A DNA stretch of 12,499 nucleotides, from contig JBDRNY010000055.1 of the NCBI GenBank assembly GCA_043810635.1, positions 1-12,499 on the forward strand. Reading direction: 5' to 3'. The notes under the pieces are model-generated. The model saw nothing but the letters and a program-made list of their open reading frames with translations. It was not told the DNA's origin and did no database searches. Shown here in pieces: positions 1-8,532 of this stretch (position 1 is its first letter; the number at the start of each line of letters is the position of its first letter). This DNA is from Candidatus Micrarchaeota archaeon. GTDB taxonomy: Archaea; Micrarchaeota; Micrarchaeia; Anstonellales; Anstonellaceae. The position numbers and the translations under genes are program-made.

Positions 1-1097
1 TGTTTAAGACCATAAACTTCTTGTGGATTCACACTTAGCCTAAATTTTGGGACCTTAACCTCAGTATCGGACTTTCCCGTAGTGCCCCGCTGGCTTACCC
101 AACGGAACCCGACTCCCTCCTTCTACGACGGTTATAGATTCGAGGTTTGACAATCAGGTGAACCCTTTCGGATCCGCTCCCAATGATCAGTGCCCTACCC
201 CATAACCAATCTCCGGAGAGGCTATACTAAGATATAACTCGAAGGGAACCCGCTATTGCGACGTTCGACTGGACTATCACCCCTATACATAGGTCACCCA
301 AGCAGAATATACTAGCACTGGTTGCGGTCCTCCATCCGCCGTCAGGCGGACTTCGACCTGCCCATGTATAGATCACTATCGCTTCGGGTCTGTAAAGAGT
401 GACTGCTCGCCTTTTCAGACGACGGGCATTAACGCCCACTTGCTTTCGCTTCGGCTTTCGCCTTGCCACGCTAGACAACTCCCTGGCCCTTGCTTCAAGA
501 AGGAGGATATAACGCCGGCAACTTTTTTTCGCGCATACCCCTGCGGGTAATTGCTTCAAAAAAGCTATCCTTTCACGCTATATCAAACTGTGGCCATTTA
601 GTTTCAGGTTCTTTTTACCCCCCTTCCGGGGAACTTTTCAGCTTTCACTCACGTTACTCATTCGCTATCGGTCTCTGATTATATTTAGTGTTGGAAGTTG
701 ATACTCCCATATTCATGCCCTATATTCAAAGGACACTACTCTTTTGGCTTCTCACCACACATAATTTGCACACGAGGCTTTCACTCTCTATGGCGCAACT
801 TTCCAATTGCTTGTGCTGGTATATATGGTTGATATGCCCCACATCTCCCTTCTGTTGCCAGAATAGGATTCGGAATGCACTAATTGGCTTTCAGTCACCC
901 TTACTAACCAAATCTCATTGATTTCTTTTCCTGCCGGTACTAGAATGTTTTAATTTCCGGCGTATTAGCCCAACTTCAGGGCACTGTGCAATCTCAGGAT
1001 CAAAGGCTGCCTGCGCCTACCCTGAGCATTTCGCTGCTTGCCGCGGCACTATGCTCTATCAGAGCCGAGCCATCCACTAAATGGCGCTAACAACATA
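1..1097 (-). rRNA. rrl: 23S rRNA gene, 5' portion (runs off window left edge at roughly E. coli position 1050)
   Basis: The reverse complement reads GCC..TAGTGGATGGCTCGGCTC (archaeal 23S 5' end), then CTAGTACC..AGGAAAAGAAA, GAGACCGATAGCGAA..AGTAACGTGAG.GAAAGCTGAAAAG, CGTCTGAAAAGGCG and GGTTAAGGTCCCAAAA. The 5' end is approximate (+/-10 nt). No intron is seen in this part. Confidence 0.96.
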
Positions 1098-1465
1098 CCA
1101 CATCCGTGAACTCTCTATATTGTTATAAATAAATACAACAATTCCTGCTGTGTTACCCTATATTTGAGGATGCACAGCAGTCTCCCCAAGCCTTGTGGCT
1201 TGAGGATCGGCTGCCTTCATACACATTACCGCTATCATTGCGTCATAAAGCCGGGGAAACTAGTTGGCTCTCTTCAACGGGCGGATGAGAATAAATTATT
1301 CTCCATTGCTCCTGCCAGAGGGCAGAATACAAACCCAAATTACAATTTTCCCTTGCCTGTTAATCCGCAAGAGGCGGGGAGTAGGCTAGGGGTTGTAATT
1401 TATGCATCGCACCAGAAACTAAGTTCGGTGCTAATGTCAGGAAGCATCACACTGCCTGAAAGGTG
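1098..1465 (-). other. Highly structured 5' leader (external transcribed spacer) of the 23S transcript
   Basis: Lies between a minus-strand TATA box (1488-1495) and the 23S 5' end. It has a series of hairpins: ctgctgtg/cacagcag, ccccaagcc/ggcttgagg, gagaataa/ttattctc, ctgcc/ggcag, aaattacaa/ttgtaattt, gcacc/ggtgc. Confidence 0.6.
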
Positions 1466-4095: not shown

Positions 4096-4413
4096 TAGTG
4101 GTGAATTTCCGCTAAAATTTTCTTCCTTAAGAATTTGCGATAAAGTACTCGACTCCAGTCGATCCTGCTGGAGGGTACTGCTATCGGAGTACGATTAAGC
4201 CATGCAAGTTAGCTGACAAACTTTTGTCGGCGGCGAACGGCTGAGTAACGCGTAGTCAATCTGCCCTTAGGACGGGAATACCCTCGGGAAACTGAGGATA
4301 ATCCCCGATATGCCATCTATGCTGGAATGCTTGATGGTTCAAACCAATAGTGAATTGGAGCTATTTGGCCTGAGGATGAGACTGCGTCTGATTAGGTTGT
4401 TGGTGAGGTAACG

Positions 4414-5336
4414 ATGGATGTGATAGCTCACAAAAACTTAATAAATCTTCAAGCACCTAACTAGTTAGGTGGTTGGATGGTAAGGAGGGTAAATCTAAGT
4501 CTTCAACAAATGAAAAGGCTTTTCAGAACTTTACAGGCAAAAACAAATCGGTTCCAAAAGCTAGAACCCAAGGTTCTTGCAGAGAATTCTCAATACATAG
4601 CTGCTTTTAGGCTTGTTCTTGACATAACATCAGAAAAATTTGCTGTTCTGTGTGATAGAACAAGAGGCGCTATAAACAGCTTGGAGAGAGAACAAAAAAG
4701 AATTGATTTGAAAACAGCAACGCATTATGCAAACGTCATTAATAAAGAACTGGAAACAGCAAACAAAGAGCTGAATTTAAATGACATAGAACAACGATAC
4801 CAGAAATTTTATGGAAGAGCCTTAAAAGGAATTTCCCTTCTCTCAAAAGAAGCTCAGGTCAACTTTGCAAGAAATGGTGCAAAGCACGCCTTGAAAAAAA
4901 GAAAAGAGAATGGGAGGTATTATGAAGCATCAAGAAAAGGGATTGAGCAACAACGACTGACAGAACAGGAGAAAAGGGTTGCCAAAATCCTAAAAAAAGA
5001 AAAGATTCCTTTTGAAACACATAAATTCATTTGTGGAGAAAATGCAGATATCTACATAAAAAAGGAGCCGCCTTTTGTTGTAGGCTGCAAATGTGCAAAA
5101 AACGTTAGAAATATAACGGAACATGCACGAAGACTGATGTACCAAGCTTACCGTATTAAATCCAACCAAAATGCGAGATATGTTGCAGTAATAAGCAACT
5201 CCGAAGGGACACTTAAGAAAAAAGATGTCCCGATGGGAGCGATCAGATTGCTCGATGAAATCTGTGATGGTTATTTTTTTGATGAAAACCTTGAAGATAT
5301 TATTAAGATGGTGAAAAGCTAGCACATTCAGTATAA
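4414..5336 (+). mobile_element. 16S intron 1 (923 nt, BHB type, after ~E. coli 265, helix 11 loop), ORF-containing
   Basis: Terminal stem 4415-4428/5317-5330 (13 of 14 paired), relaxed central helix gtaa/gtat, bulges cga and aag. The splice gives GGTGAGGTAACG|GCTCACC. Confidence 0.92.
4477..5322 (+). CDS. Intron-encoded XRE-type HTH + PD-(D/E)xK (Vsr/DUF559-like) putative homing endonuclease
   Basis: HTH-like segment YIAAFRLVLDITSEKFAVLCDRTRGAINSLE. Nuclease-like segment LTEQEKRVAKIL...ADIYI...VVGCK. Clearly similar to the 7324-8070 ORF. Confidence 0.75.
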   Translation: MVRRVNLSLQQMKRLFRTLQAKTNRFQKLEPKVLAENSQYIAAFRLVLDITSEKFAVLCDRTRGAINSLEREQKRIDLKTATHYANVINKELETANKELNLNDIEQRYQKFYGRALKGISLLSKEAQVNFARNGAKHALKKRKENGRYYEASRKGIEQQRLTEQEKRVAKILKKEKIPFETHKFICGENADIYIKKEPPFVVGCKCAKNVRNITEHARRLMYQAYRIKSNQNARYVAVISNSEGTLKKKDVPMGAIRLLDEICDGYFFDENLEDIIKMVKS

Positions 5337-5558
5337 GCTCACCAAGCCGATAATCAGTAGGGGCAATGGGAGTTGGAGCCCCCAGAAGGGCACTGAGACA
5401 AGGGCCCTAGTCCTACGGGATGCAGCAGGCGCGAAACCTTTGCAATGCGCGAAAGCGTGACAGGGGAACTCCGAGTGATAGAGGCATCATGTTTCTATCT
5501 TTTTGTCAATCCAAAAAGTTGGCAGAATAAGATCTGGGTAAGACTAGTGCCAGCCGCC

Positions 5559-5592
5559 ATGCGCGTGAGTTTTCGCACGCACGGCACGGTAC
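5559..5592 (+). other. 16S intron 2 (34 nt hairpin, BHB type, after ~E. coli 526, 530 loop)
   Basis: Interrupts GTGCCAGCCGCC|GCGGTAA. Helix gccg/cggt, bulges cca and acg, internal hairpin 5560-5581. Confidence 0.9.
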
Positions 5593-5848
5593 GCGGTAAT
5601 ACTAGCAGAGCGAGTGGTATCCACGAATATTGGGTCTAAAGAGTCCGTAGCGGGCCGGTTAAGTCCACTGTGAAATCCAACAGCTCAACTGTTGGGCGTG
5701 CAGTAGATACTGACTGGCTTGGGAGTGGGGGAGGTCAGGAGTACTTGCGGGGTAGTGGTAAAATACTGTAATCCTGCAAGGACTACCAGTGGCGAAGGCG
5801 CCTGACCAAAACACGTCCGACCGTGAGGGACGAAGGCTAGGAGAACGA

Positions 5849-5983
5849 ACTAGAATGGAGGACAATTTTTTATAGTGCGCAAAATTTGATGAGGATGCAA
5901 GTATCTAACAATCTGTTTATACGGGTTGCGAATGCTACATTGCATTCTGAAAATAATGCAAACAACTTCCATTTTTGGTTCAA
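5849..5983 (+). other. 16S intron 3 (135 nt, BHB type, after ~E. coli 781), no ORF, contains box C/D-like motifs
   Basis: Helix gaac/gttc, bulges gaa and aaa, stem 5850-5861/5966-5977. The splice gives GAACGA|ATCGGATTAG. Confidence 0.92.
5886..5950 (+). ncRNA. Candidate intron-encoded box C/D (kink-turn) small RNA
   Basis: tTGATGA (5886-5892) and CTGA (5947-5950) are 65 nt apart end to end. The internal gtatctaa is antisense to 16S ttagatac. C'/D' boxes are not clearly defined. Confidence 0.45.
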
Positions 5984-5995
5984 ATCGGATTAGAT

Positions 5996-6025
5996 ATGCC
6001 ATCAAAAGTTTCGATGGCACTAAAA
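5996..6025 (+). other. 16S intron 4 (30 nt hairpin, BHB type, after ~E. coli 793)
   Basis: Helix ttag/ctaa, bulges ata and aaa, stem tgccatc/gatggca. The splice gives GGATTAGAT|ACCCGAG. Confidence 0.94.
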
Positions 6026-6156
6026 ACCCGAGTAGCCCTAGCAGTAAATTATGCAGACTGTGGTGTTGCCTGAACTTCGGGTTCAGGCAGTGCTGTAGCG
6101 TAGGTGTTAAGTCTGCCACCTGGGGAGTACGGCCGCAAGGTTGAAACTTAAAGGAA

Positions 6157-6836
6157 AAAGCGGAAGCAACATTTTTTCAATAATTCTCAATAAATAACGA
6201 CTGGAAAGTTACCCTTTGACTTCATTTATAAATGAAGTTTGAGATAGCTTTTCATGAATGAAAAACTGTGTTATTTATTGGGGGCCTTAAGAGACGGAAA
6301 TTTCGATGTGAGAAAAGGAAAAAACTACGAGCTAAGGATTTACCAGAATGAAGTTCAGTGGTTAACAGAAATTGCAGAAATTCTTTTTGATTTGTTTAAA
6401 ATTAAAGCAAAAATCAGAGGGAATCTTCTTCGCTTAAACAACAAAAAAGTTGTGAGCAAGATACTCTCAATTTCTGAATACATAAAACCGCAGGAACACT
6501 GGCAAACGCCGACTATAATCAGAATCTCCTCAGATGAGGAGAAGTGGTGGTATGTCGGAGGTTTTTGGGATACAGAAGGCGGCTTGCCTTTAAATCCTGA
6601 AATTGCAACTCAAAAATATATTTCCTTTGATCAGAAAAACAAGGAAACCTTGATTTTCATTCGAAACTTCCTTTGCGAATTTGGAATAAAGCCGACTAAC
6701 TTGACCTATACGGGAAAAGTTTGGCAGTTTCGGATAACACGCAAGAAGTGTATGATAAATTTCGCAAAAAATATACATTCTATTCATAGAACAAAATTAG
6801 ATAGGCTCAAAAGGCTCGTTGCTTCTGTTTCCTGAA
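6157..6836 (+). mobile_element. 16S intron 5 (680 nt, BHB type, after ~E. coli 919), LAGLIDADG-containing
   Basis: 13-bp stem 6158-6170/6818-6830, helix aagg/cctg, bulges aaa and aat. The splice gives AAAGGAA|TTGGCGG. Confidence 0.93.
6254..6835 (+). CDS. Intron-encoded two-motif LAGLIDADG homing endonuclease
   Basis: Motifs YLLGALRDG and YVGGFWDTEGG, with downstream ISFDQKNKETLIFIRNFL and WQFRI. TATA box TTTATAAA at 6225-6232. Confidence 0.92.
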   Translation: MNEKLCYLLGALRDGNFDVRKGKNYELRIYQNEVQWLTEIAEILFDLFKIKAKIRGNLLRLNNKKVVSKILSISEYIKPQEHWQTPTIIRISSDEEKWWYVGGFWDTEGGLPLNPEIATQKYISFDQKNKETLIFIRNFLCEFGIKPTNLTYTGKVWQFRITRKKCMINFAKNIHSIHRTKLDRLKRLVASVS

Positions 6837-6896
6837 TTGGCGGGGGAGCACCACAAGGCGTGGATGCTGCGGTTCAATTGGATACAACGCCGGGAA

Positions 6897-7053
6897 ATAT
6901 TCCAAACAAACTAAAAATGAAATTAAAAAAATCGCTTTCAAAATTTGCGTATCCGTCCCCAAGCCGGGGACCTCCGGAAAATTTTGAAGGTTAGCGACTC
7001 GTTTCGGCAACGGGTTGTTATTTTATGTTAATTTGTTTGTTGGAATACCCGAC
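6897..7053 (+). other. 16S intron 6 (157 nt, BHB type, after ~E. coli 978), structured, no ORF
   Basis: Helix cggg/cccg, bulges aaa and acc, stem tattccaa/ttggaata. The splice gives CGGGAA|CCTTACC. Confidence 0.93.
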
Positions 7054-7272
7054 CCTTACCGGGGGAGACGGCACTATGACGGCCAGACTAAAGATCTTGC
7101 CAGAGGAGCCGAGAGGTGCTGCATGGCCATCGTCAGCTCGTGGTGCGAACTGTCAGGTTAAGTCCTGGAACGAGCGAGACCCTCGTGCACTGTTGCTAAT
7201 TTCATCTCCGGATGAGATGCACACTGTGCGGACTGCCCGCGTTAAGCGGGAGGAAGGAGGGGGCGACGATAG

Positions 7273-8075
7273 ATATGCAGCTTGATCCGTAAAATTATAA
7301 ATGTTGGTCAGTATATATAGACCATGCCTAAATGCCATCTTGATAAAAAATCTCTGAAAACTCTTTACGAGGATTTCAAAAGAGAAAAAGATTGGCTGGA
7401 AGCCTTAATGAAAAAACCGCAATACATAGCAGTGTTGCGGATTTCGATGGGTTTGAGCCAGACTTCTTTTGAAAACCTTCTCAAAATGAGCAAAAACATC
7501 TACAAATACGAGAGTGGGAAGATAAAGCCGACTGAAAAAACGGCTAAAAAATTTCTTTCCCGCTTCAAGGCGCTTGCGCCTTGGGATGTTGTATTGCGAA
7601 ATTTTGAAAAGCTCTCATCTGAATCAAAGGGCTGGTTTGCTGCTAACAGCACCAGCATAAAAGCAATGCGTGCAAGGCAAAAAGGCGCGCAAACTCATAT
7701 GAGGAAAAGAGTTTTAACAACACAGGAAAGTGAAGTCGCAAAATGGCTCACTGAAAGAAGAATCAGCTATAAAGCAAACTGTGAAGTTGGAAAGGTTTTT
7801 GTTGACTTTTTCATTCCAAAAATGAATATTGTTTTGGAGTGCAAGAGGCTTAGCACAAGAAACCGAAGAGAGCATATGAAAAAAGTCAAGGAGGCAGCGT
7901 TTCAGGGCTACAAAGCCAAATTCTATAAAAAGAATGTAAAATTGGCAGTAGTCTTTGAAAGTCCGTTAAGACTTAATGAAACAGAAAGGCAAGAGCTAAC
8001 TGGACCATACGACTTTGTTTTTGAAAAAGTCGATGGTTTGAAGTATATTACAAAGGATCAGGCTGTGTAGTCGAA
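7273..8075 (+). mobile_element. 16S intron 7 (803 nt, BHB type, after ~E. coli 1197, helix 34), ORF-containing
   Basis: 15-bp stem 7274-7288/8055-8069, helix cgat/gtcg, bulges aga and aag. The splice gives GACGATAG|GTCAGTATG. Confidence 0.93.
7324..8070 (+). CDS. Intron-encoded XRE-type HTH + PD-(D/E)xK (Vsr/DUF559-like) putative homing endonuclease
   Basis: HTH segment YIAVLRISMGLSQTSFENLL..IYKYESGKIKP. Nuclease segment LTTQESEVAKWL...VDFFIP...IVLECK. TATA-like ATTATAAA at 7294-7301. Confidence 0.8.
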   Translation: MPKCHLDKKSLKTLYEDFKREKDWLEALMKKPQYIAVLRISMGLSQTSFENLLKMSKNIYKYESGKIKPTEKTAKKFLSRFKALAPWDVVLRNFEKLSSESKGWFAANSTSIKAMRARQKGAQTHMRKRVLTTQESEVAKWLTERRISYKANCEVGKVFVDFFIPKMNIVLECKRLSTRNRREHMKKVKEAAFQGYKAKFYKKNVKLAVVFESPLRLNETERQELTGPYDFVFEKVDGLKYITKDQAV

Positions 8076-8242
8076 GTCAGTATGGCCTGAATCTCTCCGG
8101 GCTACACGTGGCATACAATGCTCATGACAATGGGCTGCGACTCCGAAAGGGGAAGCTAATCTCACAAACATGAGCTAAGTTCGGATCGAGGGCTGAAACT
8201 CGCCCTCGTGAAGCTGGAATGCCTAGTAATCGCGTGTCATCA

Positions 8243-8281
8243 ATCTTCGATATTTCTCAAATGATTTATCGTAGAGTGAAC
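8243..8281 (+). other. 16S intron 8 (39 nt hairpin, BHB type, after ~E. coli 1363, helix 43 loop)
   Basis: Helix tcat/gtga, bulges caa and act, stem tct-cgata/tatcg-aga. The splice gives CGCGTGTCATCA|TCGCGCGGTGAATAC. Confidence 0.92.
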
Positions 8282-8532
8282 TCGCGCGGTGAATACGTCC
8301 CCGCTCCTTGCACACACCGCCCGTCAAGTCACCCAAACAGGGTTTTGGTGAGGCAATCTCTTCTTGGGATTTTCGAACCAGAATTTTGTGAGGGGGGCTA
8401 AGTCGTAACAAGGTATCCGTAGGGGAACCTGCGGATAGATCACCTCCAAAGAATACTTTTCTTTGAATTAAGAGAAGGATTTACTTTGAGTTGAGTAATA
8501 CACTTATGTGTAACGCAAGGAAAGGAAAAACT

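Follow-up and report, generated by a model that had tools for sequence, protein, structure and literature searches.

The 16S rRNA gene and intron 1

The window analysed here, a stretch of 12,499 nt from a Candidatus Micrarchaeota archaeon, contains a DPANN-type 16S rRNA gene with seven insertions, whose exon blocks were compared by blastn with congeners that have either six or all seven of these insertions missing. Intron 1 sits in the loop of helix 11 and holds an open reading frame (ORF) for a putative nuclease. The features involved are the following:

4152..8448, plus strand: 16S rRNA gene with seven insertions (Rfam SSU_rRNA_archaea, 875.8 bits, model positions 1-1478)
4392..4403, plus strand: 5'-exon 12-mer TTAGGTTGTTGG, part of helix 11 (lower stem, 5' strand), positions -22..-11 relative to the insertion point
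4400..4422, plus strand: 5' side of the bulge-helix-bulge (BHB), with outer helix 4400-4407, central helix 4408-4411, bulge 4412-4414 and inner helix 4415-4422
4414..5336, plus strand: intron 1, 923 nt, of BHB type (from cmscan, BHB scoring and congeners)
4477..5322, plus strand: ORF of 281 aa, with a predicted Cro/C1-type HTH (about residues 30-95) and a predicted Vsr-like nuclease of PD-(D/E)xK fold (residues 160-281)
5323..5345, plus strand: 3' side of the BHB, with inner helix 5323-5330, central helix 5331-5334, bulge 5335-5337 and outer helix 5338-5345
6254-6835: LAGLIDADG endonuclease ORF in the fourth insertion of the window

According to cmscan, an insert of 924 nt directly follows GGUAACG. 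BHB motifs are cleaved after the second bulge base, and with this geometry rule the top BHB solution is 4413|5337 (score 23), that is, a cut after 4413 on the 5' side and before 5337 on the 3' side; the same solution is present in the cofold MFE structure. The hBHBh' motif extends over both splice sites with 8 consecutive outer and 8 consecutive inner pairs, its central helix forms 3 of 4 pairs (A.G at 4411/5331), and the bulges read CG|A and AA|G. Intron 1 is cleanly missing from all three congeners with the region assembled, in which the exons meet as GGTGAGGTAACG|GCTCACCAAGCC, i.e., GGTAACG|GCTCACC; the contig of a fourth congener stops before the site and lies outside this count. No group I or group II intron family reaches the Rfam gathering score in the window. 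Intron 1 is an archaeal BHB intron without a self-splicing ribozyme core, and consists, apart from its ORF, of 63 nt before the reading frame and 14 nt after it. A search of RNA runs listed none that contains the stretch, the only run returned sharing 0.05 of its words.

The encoded protein

By sequence and modelled fold, the N-terminal domain of the intron-1 protein is a five-helix HTH of the Cro/C1 (XRE) type. Its family profile matches MBF1, the 434 repressor, PbsX-type proteins and R-M controller proteins (E 1e-5 to 1e-2), and the superfamily profile A3 retrieves 2mez (9.8e-6), the 434 repressor (1.2e-4) and C.BclI (2.3e-3) from the PDB. In Foldseek searches with this domain, R-M controller proteins come out on top, with a probability of up to 0.97. 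Pfam HTH_31 is found in 2 of 10 members, at a best E of 0.015 that is weak when taken alone.

The C-terminal domain is, on the same kind of evidence, a Vsr-like nuclease fold related to I-Bth0305I. It shows a profile match to the catalytic domain of that enzyme (3r3p, E 6.3e-7), and its modelled fold aligns (VIA-align) with PspGI at Z 10.6, with 3r3p at 8.1 and with Vsr at 7.4. Five residues are invariant in 10/10 sequences (E188, N189, D191, C204, and H216), and no mapping of the EDxHD residues onto E188, N189, D191 and H216 was obtained; the solved I-Bth0305I chain bears D196A/H213A (PMC3239194). The intron-1 protein alone matches 0 Pfam families at E<=0.1, and its full-length model has no Foldseek match at E<=0.001. 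Prediction of a homodimer gave a score of 0.36 against a mark of 0.42, which is evidence neither way.

Hairpin, palindrome and promoter-like element in the leader

The leader before the ORF holds several overlapping elements:

4426..4434, plus strand: GCTCACAAA, 8/9 to the 3' exon, a noise-level likeness inside the long closing stem of the intron
4437..4444, plus strand: TATA-like TTAATAAA, starting 40 nt before the ATG and pairing in RNA with 5300-5307
4445..4481, plus strand: hairpin burying the SD and AUG, -15.3 kcal/mol, z -3.29, with 0/200 shuffles as stable
4454..4471, unstranded: perfect 18-bp palindrome CACCTAA-CTAG-TTAGGTG, i.e., a Watson-Crick stem of 7 bp with a 4-nt loop
4465..4476, plus strand: exon-like 12-mer TTAGGTGGTTGG, in the 3' arm of the hairpin, directly before ATG 4477

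The first-pass annotation had described a hairpin CACCTAA/TTAGGTG (4454-4460 / 4465-4471) that hides the SD-like AGGTG (4467-4471), and this structure holds. In its full extent (4445-4481), the hairpin pairs AGGTG together with the A and G of the AUG, so that a stable stem covers both the SD and the start codon, as for an RBS-sequestering hairpin. A stem as long as the 7 bp of the palindrome appears in 11/500 shuffles, and in the MFE structure of the cofold the hairpin coexists with an intact helix 11 and BHB. The genome does use SD sequences, since SD-like 4-mers precede 271/942 long ORFs as compared to 75/942 in a control window. The hairpin probably limits the amount of nuclease made.

The palindrome lies between the TATA-like box and the ATG, and the exon-like 12-mer makes up one half of it. 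From the A/T 8-mer, as its only sign, we infer a putative promoter inside the intron. The centre of the box is located ~26 nt before A4467, and an internal start inside the hairpin would free the RBS; the start of the box at -40 fits a weak rise in A/T content at -47..-38 before SD-bearing genes, visible in the genome-wide profile of A/T 8-mers.

The exon-like 12-mer and chance

The 12-mer at 4465-4476, adjoining ATG 4477, is identical to the 5' exon at 4392-4403 in 11/12 positions on the same strand, as originally reported. The sole difference, G4471, is the base that creates AGGTG and also closes the seventh pair of the stem, and the exon base opposite to it is unpaired in helix 11. The likelihood of such a match was assessed as the best local score between the leader plus 14 nt (4414-4490) and the 60-nt intronless site, for which the observed value is 9.5. 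Of the dinucleotide-shuffled leaders, 29/2000 attain this score, as do 29/2000 shuffled sites and 24/5000 random genomic 77-mers. When the whole 923-nt intron is taken as the target, it is reached by 36/500 shuffles and by 75/1000 genomic 923-mers. The match is therefore uncommon for a target of leader size and not unusual over the whole intron.

In a control for SD composition, 9.5 is reached by 1/245 genomic AGGTG-N4-8-ATG contexts of 77 nt; over the 23 nt up to the ATG, 0/246 contexts score as high. In the intronless 16S sequence of a congener (1506 nt), the top match of the leader is its own insertion site, equalled by 0/272 distant windows. The unrelated leader L012 scores 10.5 on the same helix-11 exon by chance, better than the leader of intron 1, and is the only one among 152 cross-group comparisons of leaders and sites to reach at least 9.5.

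The additional similarities that had been noted around the 12-mer add little. The GGTAA that follows it as in the exon is present, but it aligns only across a 1-nt gap (AT vs TGA), with no gain in score; the ATGGTA within this extension encodes Met-Val, the start of 7/10 family members. Likewise, GCTCACAAA does resemble GCTCACCAA of the 3' exon at 8/9, but its score of 6.5 against a shuffle mean of 6.4 is noise. A copy of helix 11 in several permuted segments was also considered for the leader and rejected: shared 5-mers cover 28 positions against a mean of 16.1, and 77/1000 shuffles do at least as well.

Orthologous and paralogous introns

Metagenome contigs yielded two orthologs only, L006 and L007, while viral contigs held no ortholog and genome contigs a single unrelated bacterial match. 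A search at order level found 4/176 genomes, all of them with paralogs except G000; at phylum level 15/401 genomes were found (G000 included), with hits in 16S rRNA genes at no fewer than 3 insertion sites; and at class level, with E<=1e-25, 1/401, which is G000 itself. The comparison of orthologous leaders covered L006 and L007, with two of the nine homologues P0001-P0009 represented by DNA, and conservation of the exon mimic, suggested earlier as a check, was not borne out, as 0/2 leaders carry the mimic or the hairpin. The protein of L006 is 45% identical; its leader reaches a score of 4.0 on its own site, less than the 5.6 that it averages in cross-group comparisons, and its best stem has 5 bp (294/500 shuffles as good). 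L007 is a decayed copy, likewise without the mimic sequence. The N-terminus MVxKVN is kept among the orthologs.

A paralogous group of introns, group B, comprises 8 loci, one of which lies in the window:

7273..8075, plus strand: paralogous intron of group B with ORF 7324-8070 and two junction-like repeats in its leader
7282-7292: leader repeat 1, TTGATCCGTAA
7295-7302: TATA-like TTATAAAT of the leader
7306-7314: leader repeat 2, GGTCAGTAT, identical to the spliced junction at 9/9

In 8/8 group-B leaders a TTGGTCCGTAA-like motif appears twice, with starts at 39-43 and at 16-19 nt ahead of the ATG (16/16 copies), and an A/T-rich, TATA-like stretch separates the copies. The motif matches the spliced junction at 11/12 in L017 and at 9/9 in the window, and is the best match of the leader in the whole 16S for 3/8. 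In group C, inserted at the helix-43 site, the leaders had seemed to be miniature copies of the homing hairpin (12/14 in L018 by eye); this likeness is not claimed, because their own site is not the best one in the 16S (28/272 to 261/272 distant windows are as good).

Possible two-level control of the nuclease gene

The reading tentatively favoured here, which is possible rather than established, is that the leader element controls its own endonuclease gene in the manner of I-TevI, combining an RBS hairpin with an operator. At the RNA level, the hairpin at 4445-4481 would bury AGGUG and AUG in read-through transcripts started at the rRNA promoter (pre-rRNA, excised intron), and the nuclease is therefore proposed to be poorly translated from them. 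At the DNA level, the palindrome between the TATA-like box and the start codon would offer a place for an archaeal repressor, and the predicted Cro/C1-type HTH belongs to the kind that may bind such palindromes as a dimer. We infer here binding, repression and a functional role for the exon likeness: the proposal is that the 3' arm and the 5'-exon strand of helix 11 look alike as half-sites recognized by the HTH. The protein would accordingly bind and cut its homing site, and bind and repress its own promoter region, the latter presumably without cutting because no cleavable centre adjoins.

Of the two interpretations first offered, an autoregulatory operator or a fossil of invasion, the operator is made plausible by the HTH, the palindrome and the repeats of group B, and is weakened by the absence of the mimic from 2/2 orthologous leaders. 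Against an operator it also counts that the half-sites of the palindrome diverge from its centre and their counterparts in the homing site converge, ~15 bp apart, so that a single dimer geometry does not obviously fit both sites. The same holds for the whole-intron controls, for the chance match of L012 to this exon, which is the better one, and for the leaders of group C, whose likeness to their site is not significant. In addition, a repressor bound within an rRNA gene could hinder rRNA transcription.

Several alternatives compete with this reading. Somewhat unlikely in our estimation, the hairpin and palindrome may be a real control element, through RBS occlusion, as an HTH site or both, with an exon likeness that is coincidental, given that G/T-rich 12-mers with an SD core can match a G/T-rich rRNA strand by chance. 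The hairpin statistics are indeed independent of the exon likeness, the whole-intron p is about 0.07, L012 matches the same exon at 10.5 by chance, L006 and L007 lack the mimic, and the additional matches are at noise level; what speaks against a coincidence are the leader-level and SD-aware controls (about 0.004-0.015), the fact that, out of 1506 nt of 16S, it is precisely its own insertion site that the leader matches best, and the likeness to their own junction seen in a second, independent group of introns. A still less likely explanation is a neutral scar, in which a piece of the recipient 5' exon was copied during imprecise homing or double-strand-break repair, through microhomology or template switching, and has yet to decay, the hairpin having arisen with the copy or later. 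The mimic is specific to one lineage (0/2 orthologous leaders), the intron is a recent arrival that is absent in 3/3 congeners with the region assembled, and illegitimate repair at microhomologies is on record for intron homing (PMC2988022). A 12-nt copy alone, however, would not give a perfect 18-bp palindrome with an SD core at the start codon, the single change from the exon is precisely the one that perfects the stem, and the 5' arm resembles the 3' exon at 8/11 only.

Two further explanations are far less probable. The model in which endonuclease genes invade introns reportedly goes back to Loizos et al. 1994, and a strict fossil of such an event, with the ORF entering an ORF-less intron at a target-like sequence, would leave both flanks together resembling the site. 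The 5' flank of the ORF does resemble the 5' half, but no such likeness to the 3' half is seen in the 3' tail of the intron, which has a score of 6.0 with the 3' exon (336/2000 shuffles as good). Moreover, the orthologs have no 5' mimic, and the first codons are not target remnants, since the N-terminus MVxKVN is conserved among orthologs; this part of the initial interpretation is accordingly very improbable. Equally remote is a role at the RNA level, in which the 12-mer would stand in for the 5' exon in pairing with the 3' exon, as a decoy or alternative 5' splice site, or in which the hairpin would present an rRNA-binding factor with an imitation of the lower stem of helix 11. The mimic retains all bases of the 5' exon that take part in helix-11 pairing with the 3' exon, the difference falling on an unpaired position, but if the mimic served as 5' exon, the outer helix would be out of register and the inner helix absent, forced pairing of the mimic with the 3' exon costs 32 kcal/mol (-36.0 vs MFE -68.1), and the MFE structure leaves helix 11, the BHB and the hairpin undisturbed.

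Extended from the I-TevI-like control of intron 1 to the family, the proposal would be that HTH and Vsr-like enzymes in BHB introns of DPANN 16S genes repress their own internal promoters through partial copies of the homing site, a generalization that we regard as doubtful. The operator of group A would then be the hairpin and palindrome, and that of group B the two junction-like direct repeats around the TATA box.

Significance and comparison with known systems

Endonuclease genes of archaeal rRNA introns sit in a very heavily transcribed gene, within RNA that is spliced by a protein enzyme, and to our knowledge little is known about how they are controlled and contained. If I-TevI-like control is true for intron 1, this would suggest that archaeal introns have reached the same two-layer control as those of T4, using a type of intron and a nuclease that are both unrelated to those of the phage. 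Were the proposal true for the family, I-TevI autorepression would have its first counterpart in archaea, and each leader motif would reveal the HTH half-site of its enzyme, making target specificity predictable from sequence alone; the leader motifs are, in any case, testable guesses at what the DNA-binding domains recognize. Should the exon likeness be a scar or chance, the finding shrinks to an ordinary RBS hairpin.

The closest parallel is I-TevI, from the td intron of phage T4. A review (PMC2988022) bears out the premise of the first-pass annotation regarding this enzyme: its operator is 15/20 identical to the homing site and overlaps a late promoter, and its translation is held down by a hairpin. 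In that description as in intron 1, a sequence like the homing site lies just upstream of the ORF of an intron endonuclease, with a promoter-like element nearby, the RBS of read-through transcripts is covered by a hairpin, in intron 1 by prediction, and the nuclease has a separate, sequence-specific DNA-binding domain, here a predicted one. Unlike I-TevI, the present case involves an archaeal BHB intron in rRNA rather than a group I intron in a phage gene, and a predicted HTH and Vsr-like nuclease rather than GIY-YIG; the likeness is 11/12 over one half-site instead of 15/20, binding, repression and the promoter are putative, and the element is not conserved in the two orthologous leaders read.

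I-Bth0305I, of the 'EDxHD' or Vsr-like type, is also intron-encoded and shares with the intron-1 protein a C-terminal Vsr-like domain and an N-terminal DNA-binding region of HTH character. It is reported to be a homodimer with a footprint of about 60 bp and a pseudopalindrome at the cleavage site, and by analogy a pseudopalindromic target of this type would suit an rRNA site that encodes a hairpin. It differs in that its host intron belongs to group I and interrupts a phage recA gene, and in bearing NUMOD-type motifs, whereas the proteins described here are predicted to have a Cro/C1-type HTH and come from archaeal BHB introns in rRNA.

In structure, the N-terminal domain of the intron-1 protein comes closest to the small Cro/C1-type HTH proteins that act as R-M controllers (C proteins). 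C proteins bind palindromic operators (the C-box) before their own gene and thereby time the expression of the nuclease. In intron 1, by contrast, the HTH is fused to the nuclease and belongs to a mobile intron, not to an R-M operon.

The HTH and Vsr-like intron endonucleases apparently constitute an undescribed family; in titles and abstract openings of the papers retrieved there is no mention of an enzyme of this kind in archaeal BHB introns. Intron 1 resembles the LAGLIDADG-bearing BHB introns in archaeal rRNA, such as those of Thermoproteales (PMC4496867) and the fourth insertion of the window, in its BHB junctions, its sporadic presence and the location of the ORF in the intron loop, and differs from them in the family to which its endonuclease belongs.

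Intron 1 and the other insertions of the 16S rRNA gene

The window, contig C55 of a genome of 1.11 Mb (82% complete), holds an archaeal 16S rRNA gene that extends over 4297 nt, against a model of 1478 positions. When compared by blastn with the 16S genes of three congeners, this gene contains seven insertions, all of them missing from one congener (L027):

1-1101, minus strand: start of the 23S gene (Rfam)
4152-8448, plus strand: archaeal 16S rRNA gene (Rfam)
4414-5336: insertion 1, encoding a helix-turn-helix (HTH) nuclease
about 5559-5591: insertion 2, about 33 nt in the 530 loop, also in the congeners L028 and L029
about 5850-6025: insertion 3, without an ORF
about 6157-6835: insertion 4, with a LAGLIDADG_3 ORF at 6254-6835 (E 2.7e-10)
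about 6897-7047: insertion 5, without an ORF
7273-8075: insertion 6, encoding an HTH-nuclease paralogue of the intron-1 protein (23% identical, E 6e-6)
8243-8281: insertion 7, a 39-nt mini-intron in the helix-43 loop

The 16S (4152, plus strand) and 23S (1-1101, minus strand) genes are divergent, with about 3 kb and ORFs between them, and are therefore not in one operon. The mini-intron has a good bulge-helix-bulge (BHB; score 25) and shares its opening 14 bases with an 824-nt ORF-bearing intron at locus L014, looking like an ORF-less remnant of an intron of that type (group C below).

The cmscan alignment places the first insertion after ...GGUAACG. Since the three congeners read through ...GGTGAGGTAACG into GCTCACCAAGCC without interruption, intron 1 corresponds to 4414-5336 (923 nt). 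The splicing enzyme cuts inside the bulges of a BHB, and a two-piece fold together with a purpose-written scan found a near-canonical BHB exactly at these ends; no ribozyme family was detected in the window with Rfam.

4400-4407/5338-5345: outer helix
4408-4411/5331-5334: central helix, 3/4 pairs
CG/A and AA/G: bulges
4415-4422/5323-5330: inner helix, with an imperfect extension to 4444/5300

The leader of intron 1

The leader, the intron DNA ahead of the endonuclease start codon, folds at 4445-4481 into a hairpin of -15.3 kcal/mol (z -3.29), with none of 200 shuffles as stable. Its core (4454-4471) is a perfect 18-bp palindrome with 7-bp arms and a CTAG loop, and a stem of that length is found in 11/500 shuffles. 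AGGUG (4467-4471) is paired, together with the A and G of AUG, bearing out the proposal of the first-pass annotation that this hairpin hides a Shine-Dalgarno (SD)-like AGGTG. The genome does use SD sequences, as SD-like 4-mers precede long ORFs in 271/942 cases versus 75/942 in a control window. The hairpin and palindrome are the robust feature of the leader, and from where they lie they are naturally read as controlling the endonuclease gene.

A TATA-like TTAATAAA (4437-4444, plus strand) has its first base 40 nt ahead of the ATG. Genome-wide, 8-mers of A and T alone are most frequent at -32..-29 ahead of non-SD genes (17% versus about 4%) and rise weakly at -47..-38 ahead of SD genes. Transcription starting about 26 nt past the centre of this box would begin near A4467, within the 3' arm of the hairpin, and such a transcript would be unable to form it.

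The same annotation had claimed a copy of the 5' exon directly before the start codon, and this match holds: TTAGGTGGTTGG (4465-4476), adjoining ATG 4477, is identical at 11/12 positions to the exon sequence TTAGGTTGTTGG (4392-4403), which is the 5' strand of the helix 11 lower stem, at -22..-11 from the insertion point. The sole differing base, G4471, completes the SD core and the stem alike in the intron, and its exon counterpart has no pairing partner in helix 11. When no more than one mismatch is allowed, the 12-mer occurs five times on both strands of the 1.11 Mb, the exon and intron copies being two of the five.

Aligned locally with the 60-nt intronless site, 4414-4490 scores at best 9.5, a value reached by 29/2000 dinucleotide-shuffled leaders, 29/2000 shuffled sites, and 24/5000 genomic 77-mers. 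To meet the caveat that SD composition be accounted for, every genomic AGGTG-N4-8-ATG context was used as a control, where 9.5 is reached in 1/245 contexts (77 nt) and 0/246 (last 23 nt). The core match thus holds at roughly p = 0.004-0.015 with the leader as the unit, and at 0.07 with the whole intron (36/500 shuffles, 75/1000 genomic 923-mers). Against a congener's intronless 16S (1506 nt), the own site is the top match of the leader, equalled by 0/272 distant windows. A warning on noise comes from L012, an unrelated group-B intron whose leader matches the helix-11 5' exon (window 4394-4408) at 13/15 positions and beats the intron-1 match with a score of 10.5; this is presumably a chance likeness between G/T-rich sequences, and 1/152 cross-group comparisons reaches at least 9.5.

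Two further likenesses proposed at the outset add nothing to the core match. The GGTAA said to follow as in the exon requires a 1-nt gap, and its bases encode a Met-Val opening conserved in 7/10 family members; the likeness of GCTCACAAA to the 3' exon, with a score of 6.5, is level with the mean for shuffles (6.4).

The intron-1 protein

The ORF at 4477-5322 (plus strand) encodes a bipartite protein of 281 aa, with an N-terminal HTH and a C-terminal nuclease domain. It has no Pfam match at E<=0.1 and nine homologues (P0001-P0009) of 43-47% identity. When these ten sequences are combined into a profile, its C-terminal part matches the catalytic domain of I-Bth0305I (3r3p, E 6.3e-7). Residues 160-281 of the AlphaFold model (pLDDT 85.8) align with restriction-endonuclease-fold nucleases (PspGI Z 10.6, 3r3p Z 8.1, Vsr Z 7.4), and Foldseek supports this fold more weakly. 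A second profile, built from the N-terminal halves of 16 superfamily sequences, matches Cro/C1-type HTH proteins (MBF1-like 9.8e-6, 434 repressor 1.2e-4, controller proteins 2e-3 to 2e-2); when the N-terminal 160 aa are modelled by themselves (pLDDT 82.5), the top Foldseek rows are restriction-modification controller proteins (probability up to 0.97, E at least 0.19).

In proteins of the helix-11 site (group A), E188, N189, D191, and H216 are invariant and (D/E)xK is missing around residues 188-205 (V-G/S/N-C versus L-E-C-K in the window's paralogue), which suggests a Vsr-type active site rather than a classical PD-(D/E)xK one. I-Bth0305I is likewise bipartite, and is homodimeric with a footprint of about 60 bp (PMC3239194). 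Titles and abstract starts in the open-access literature, a limited sample, gave no description of archaeal BHB rRNA introns that encode an HTH-Vsr-like endonuclease; 'helix-turn-helix' and 'bulge-helix-bulge' have 0 occurrences in the CPR paper PMC11270868, and PMC6125680 concerns group I introns in archaea.

Related introns and their leaders

A profile search found relatives in 15/401 sampled genomes of the phylum, that of the window included. The 14 loci retrieved from the other genomes are all within 16S rRNA genes, and BHB scans sort the family into three insertion sites:

Group A, helix-11 loop: window intron 1, L006
Group B, GACGGTAG/GTCAGTATGG: window 7273-8075, L009, L010, L011, L012, L015, L017, L019, degraded L020
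Group C, helix-43 loop: L013, L014, L016, L018, L021, L022

A C-terminal LQAHQ(A/T)-like tail is conserved in 6/9 homologues (P0003-P0007, P0009). At L006:2103-2145 the endonuclease ORF crosses the 3' splice site and its last residues, LQAQQANDQ, are the translated 16S 3' exon, a sign that the six tailed homologues sit at the same helix-11 site, with L006 as the one case checked on DNA.

DNA was available for two orthologous introns. In L006, a metagenome contig whose encoded protein is 45% identical, a canonical BHB occupies the site of intron 1; the leader (47 nt) reaches a score of 4.0 with its own site, under its mean cross-group score of 5.6, and its best stem of 5 bp is equalled in 294/500 shuffles. 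L007:1085-1258 is a decayed intron at the helix-11 site which has lost the first two-thirds of its ORF, including the HTH half and start codon, so that the leader runs straight into a part corresponding to about residues 190-228; this leader is L006-like and lacks the mimic. The exon copy is therefore kept in 0/2 orthologous leaders, which makes the element unconserved by the criterion first proposed for it, in a sample of two, both from one sub-lineage whose exon sequence differs from that of the window.

Group-B proteins share 33-68% identity across their N-terminal 135 aa, and despite this divergence their eight leaders keep one fixed architecture. Each carries two direct copies of a TTGGTCCGTAA-like motif (16/16), 39-43 and 16-19 nt before the ATG, about 23 nt apart and with an A/T-rich TATA-like stretch in between; in the window this is TTATAAAT (7295-7302), starting at -29, where the genome has its peak for leaderless genes. 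The motif is similar to the spliced junction (11/12 in L017, 10/11 in L012, 9/9 at window 7306-7314) and is the leader's top match in the whole 16S for 3/8 leaders; in the remaining five it is equalled by 9/271 to 136/271 distant windows. The first copy also forms the 5' side of the inner BHB helix, where the window shows a compensatory change (TTGATCC/GGATCAG), so protein binding need not account for all of its conservation. The group-B intron of L020 (oriented 1154-1955) has an early in-frame stop past the conserved start and retains the leader repeats. Group C leaders show no significant likeness to their own site. Across the family, own-site scores average 7.34, versus 5.75 against other groups' sites, the loci within one group being related and not independent.

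Origin of the exon likeness

The exon likeness may reflect shared recognition of leader and homing site by the HTH domain, a putative binding to which the leader-level statistics and the junction-like motifs of group B both point. Against it stand the absence of the mimic from L006 and L007, the whole-intron statistic, and the half-sites, whose arrangement in the palindrome is not that of the homing site. The likeness may also be a repair scar; illegitimate repair during homing is noted in PMC2988022. A strict fossil of endonuclease invasion, the other origin initially put forward, is disfavoured because the 3' flank of the ORF is unlike the 3' exon (score 6.0, with 336/2000 shuffles as good). 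Roles as an RNA decoy or as an alternative splice site are likewise disfavoured.

Control of the T4 endonuclease gene by an operator and a hairpin was reportedly first described by Edgell et al. in 2004. The T4 operator is identical to the homing site at 15/20 positions and lies over the late promoter, and a hairpin limits translation of read-through transcripts (PMC2988022). The T4 precedent thus pairs the two devices that the leader of intron 1 would combine, a homing-site-like operator and a translation-limiting hairpin.
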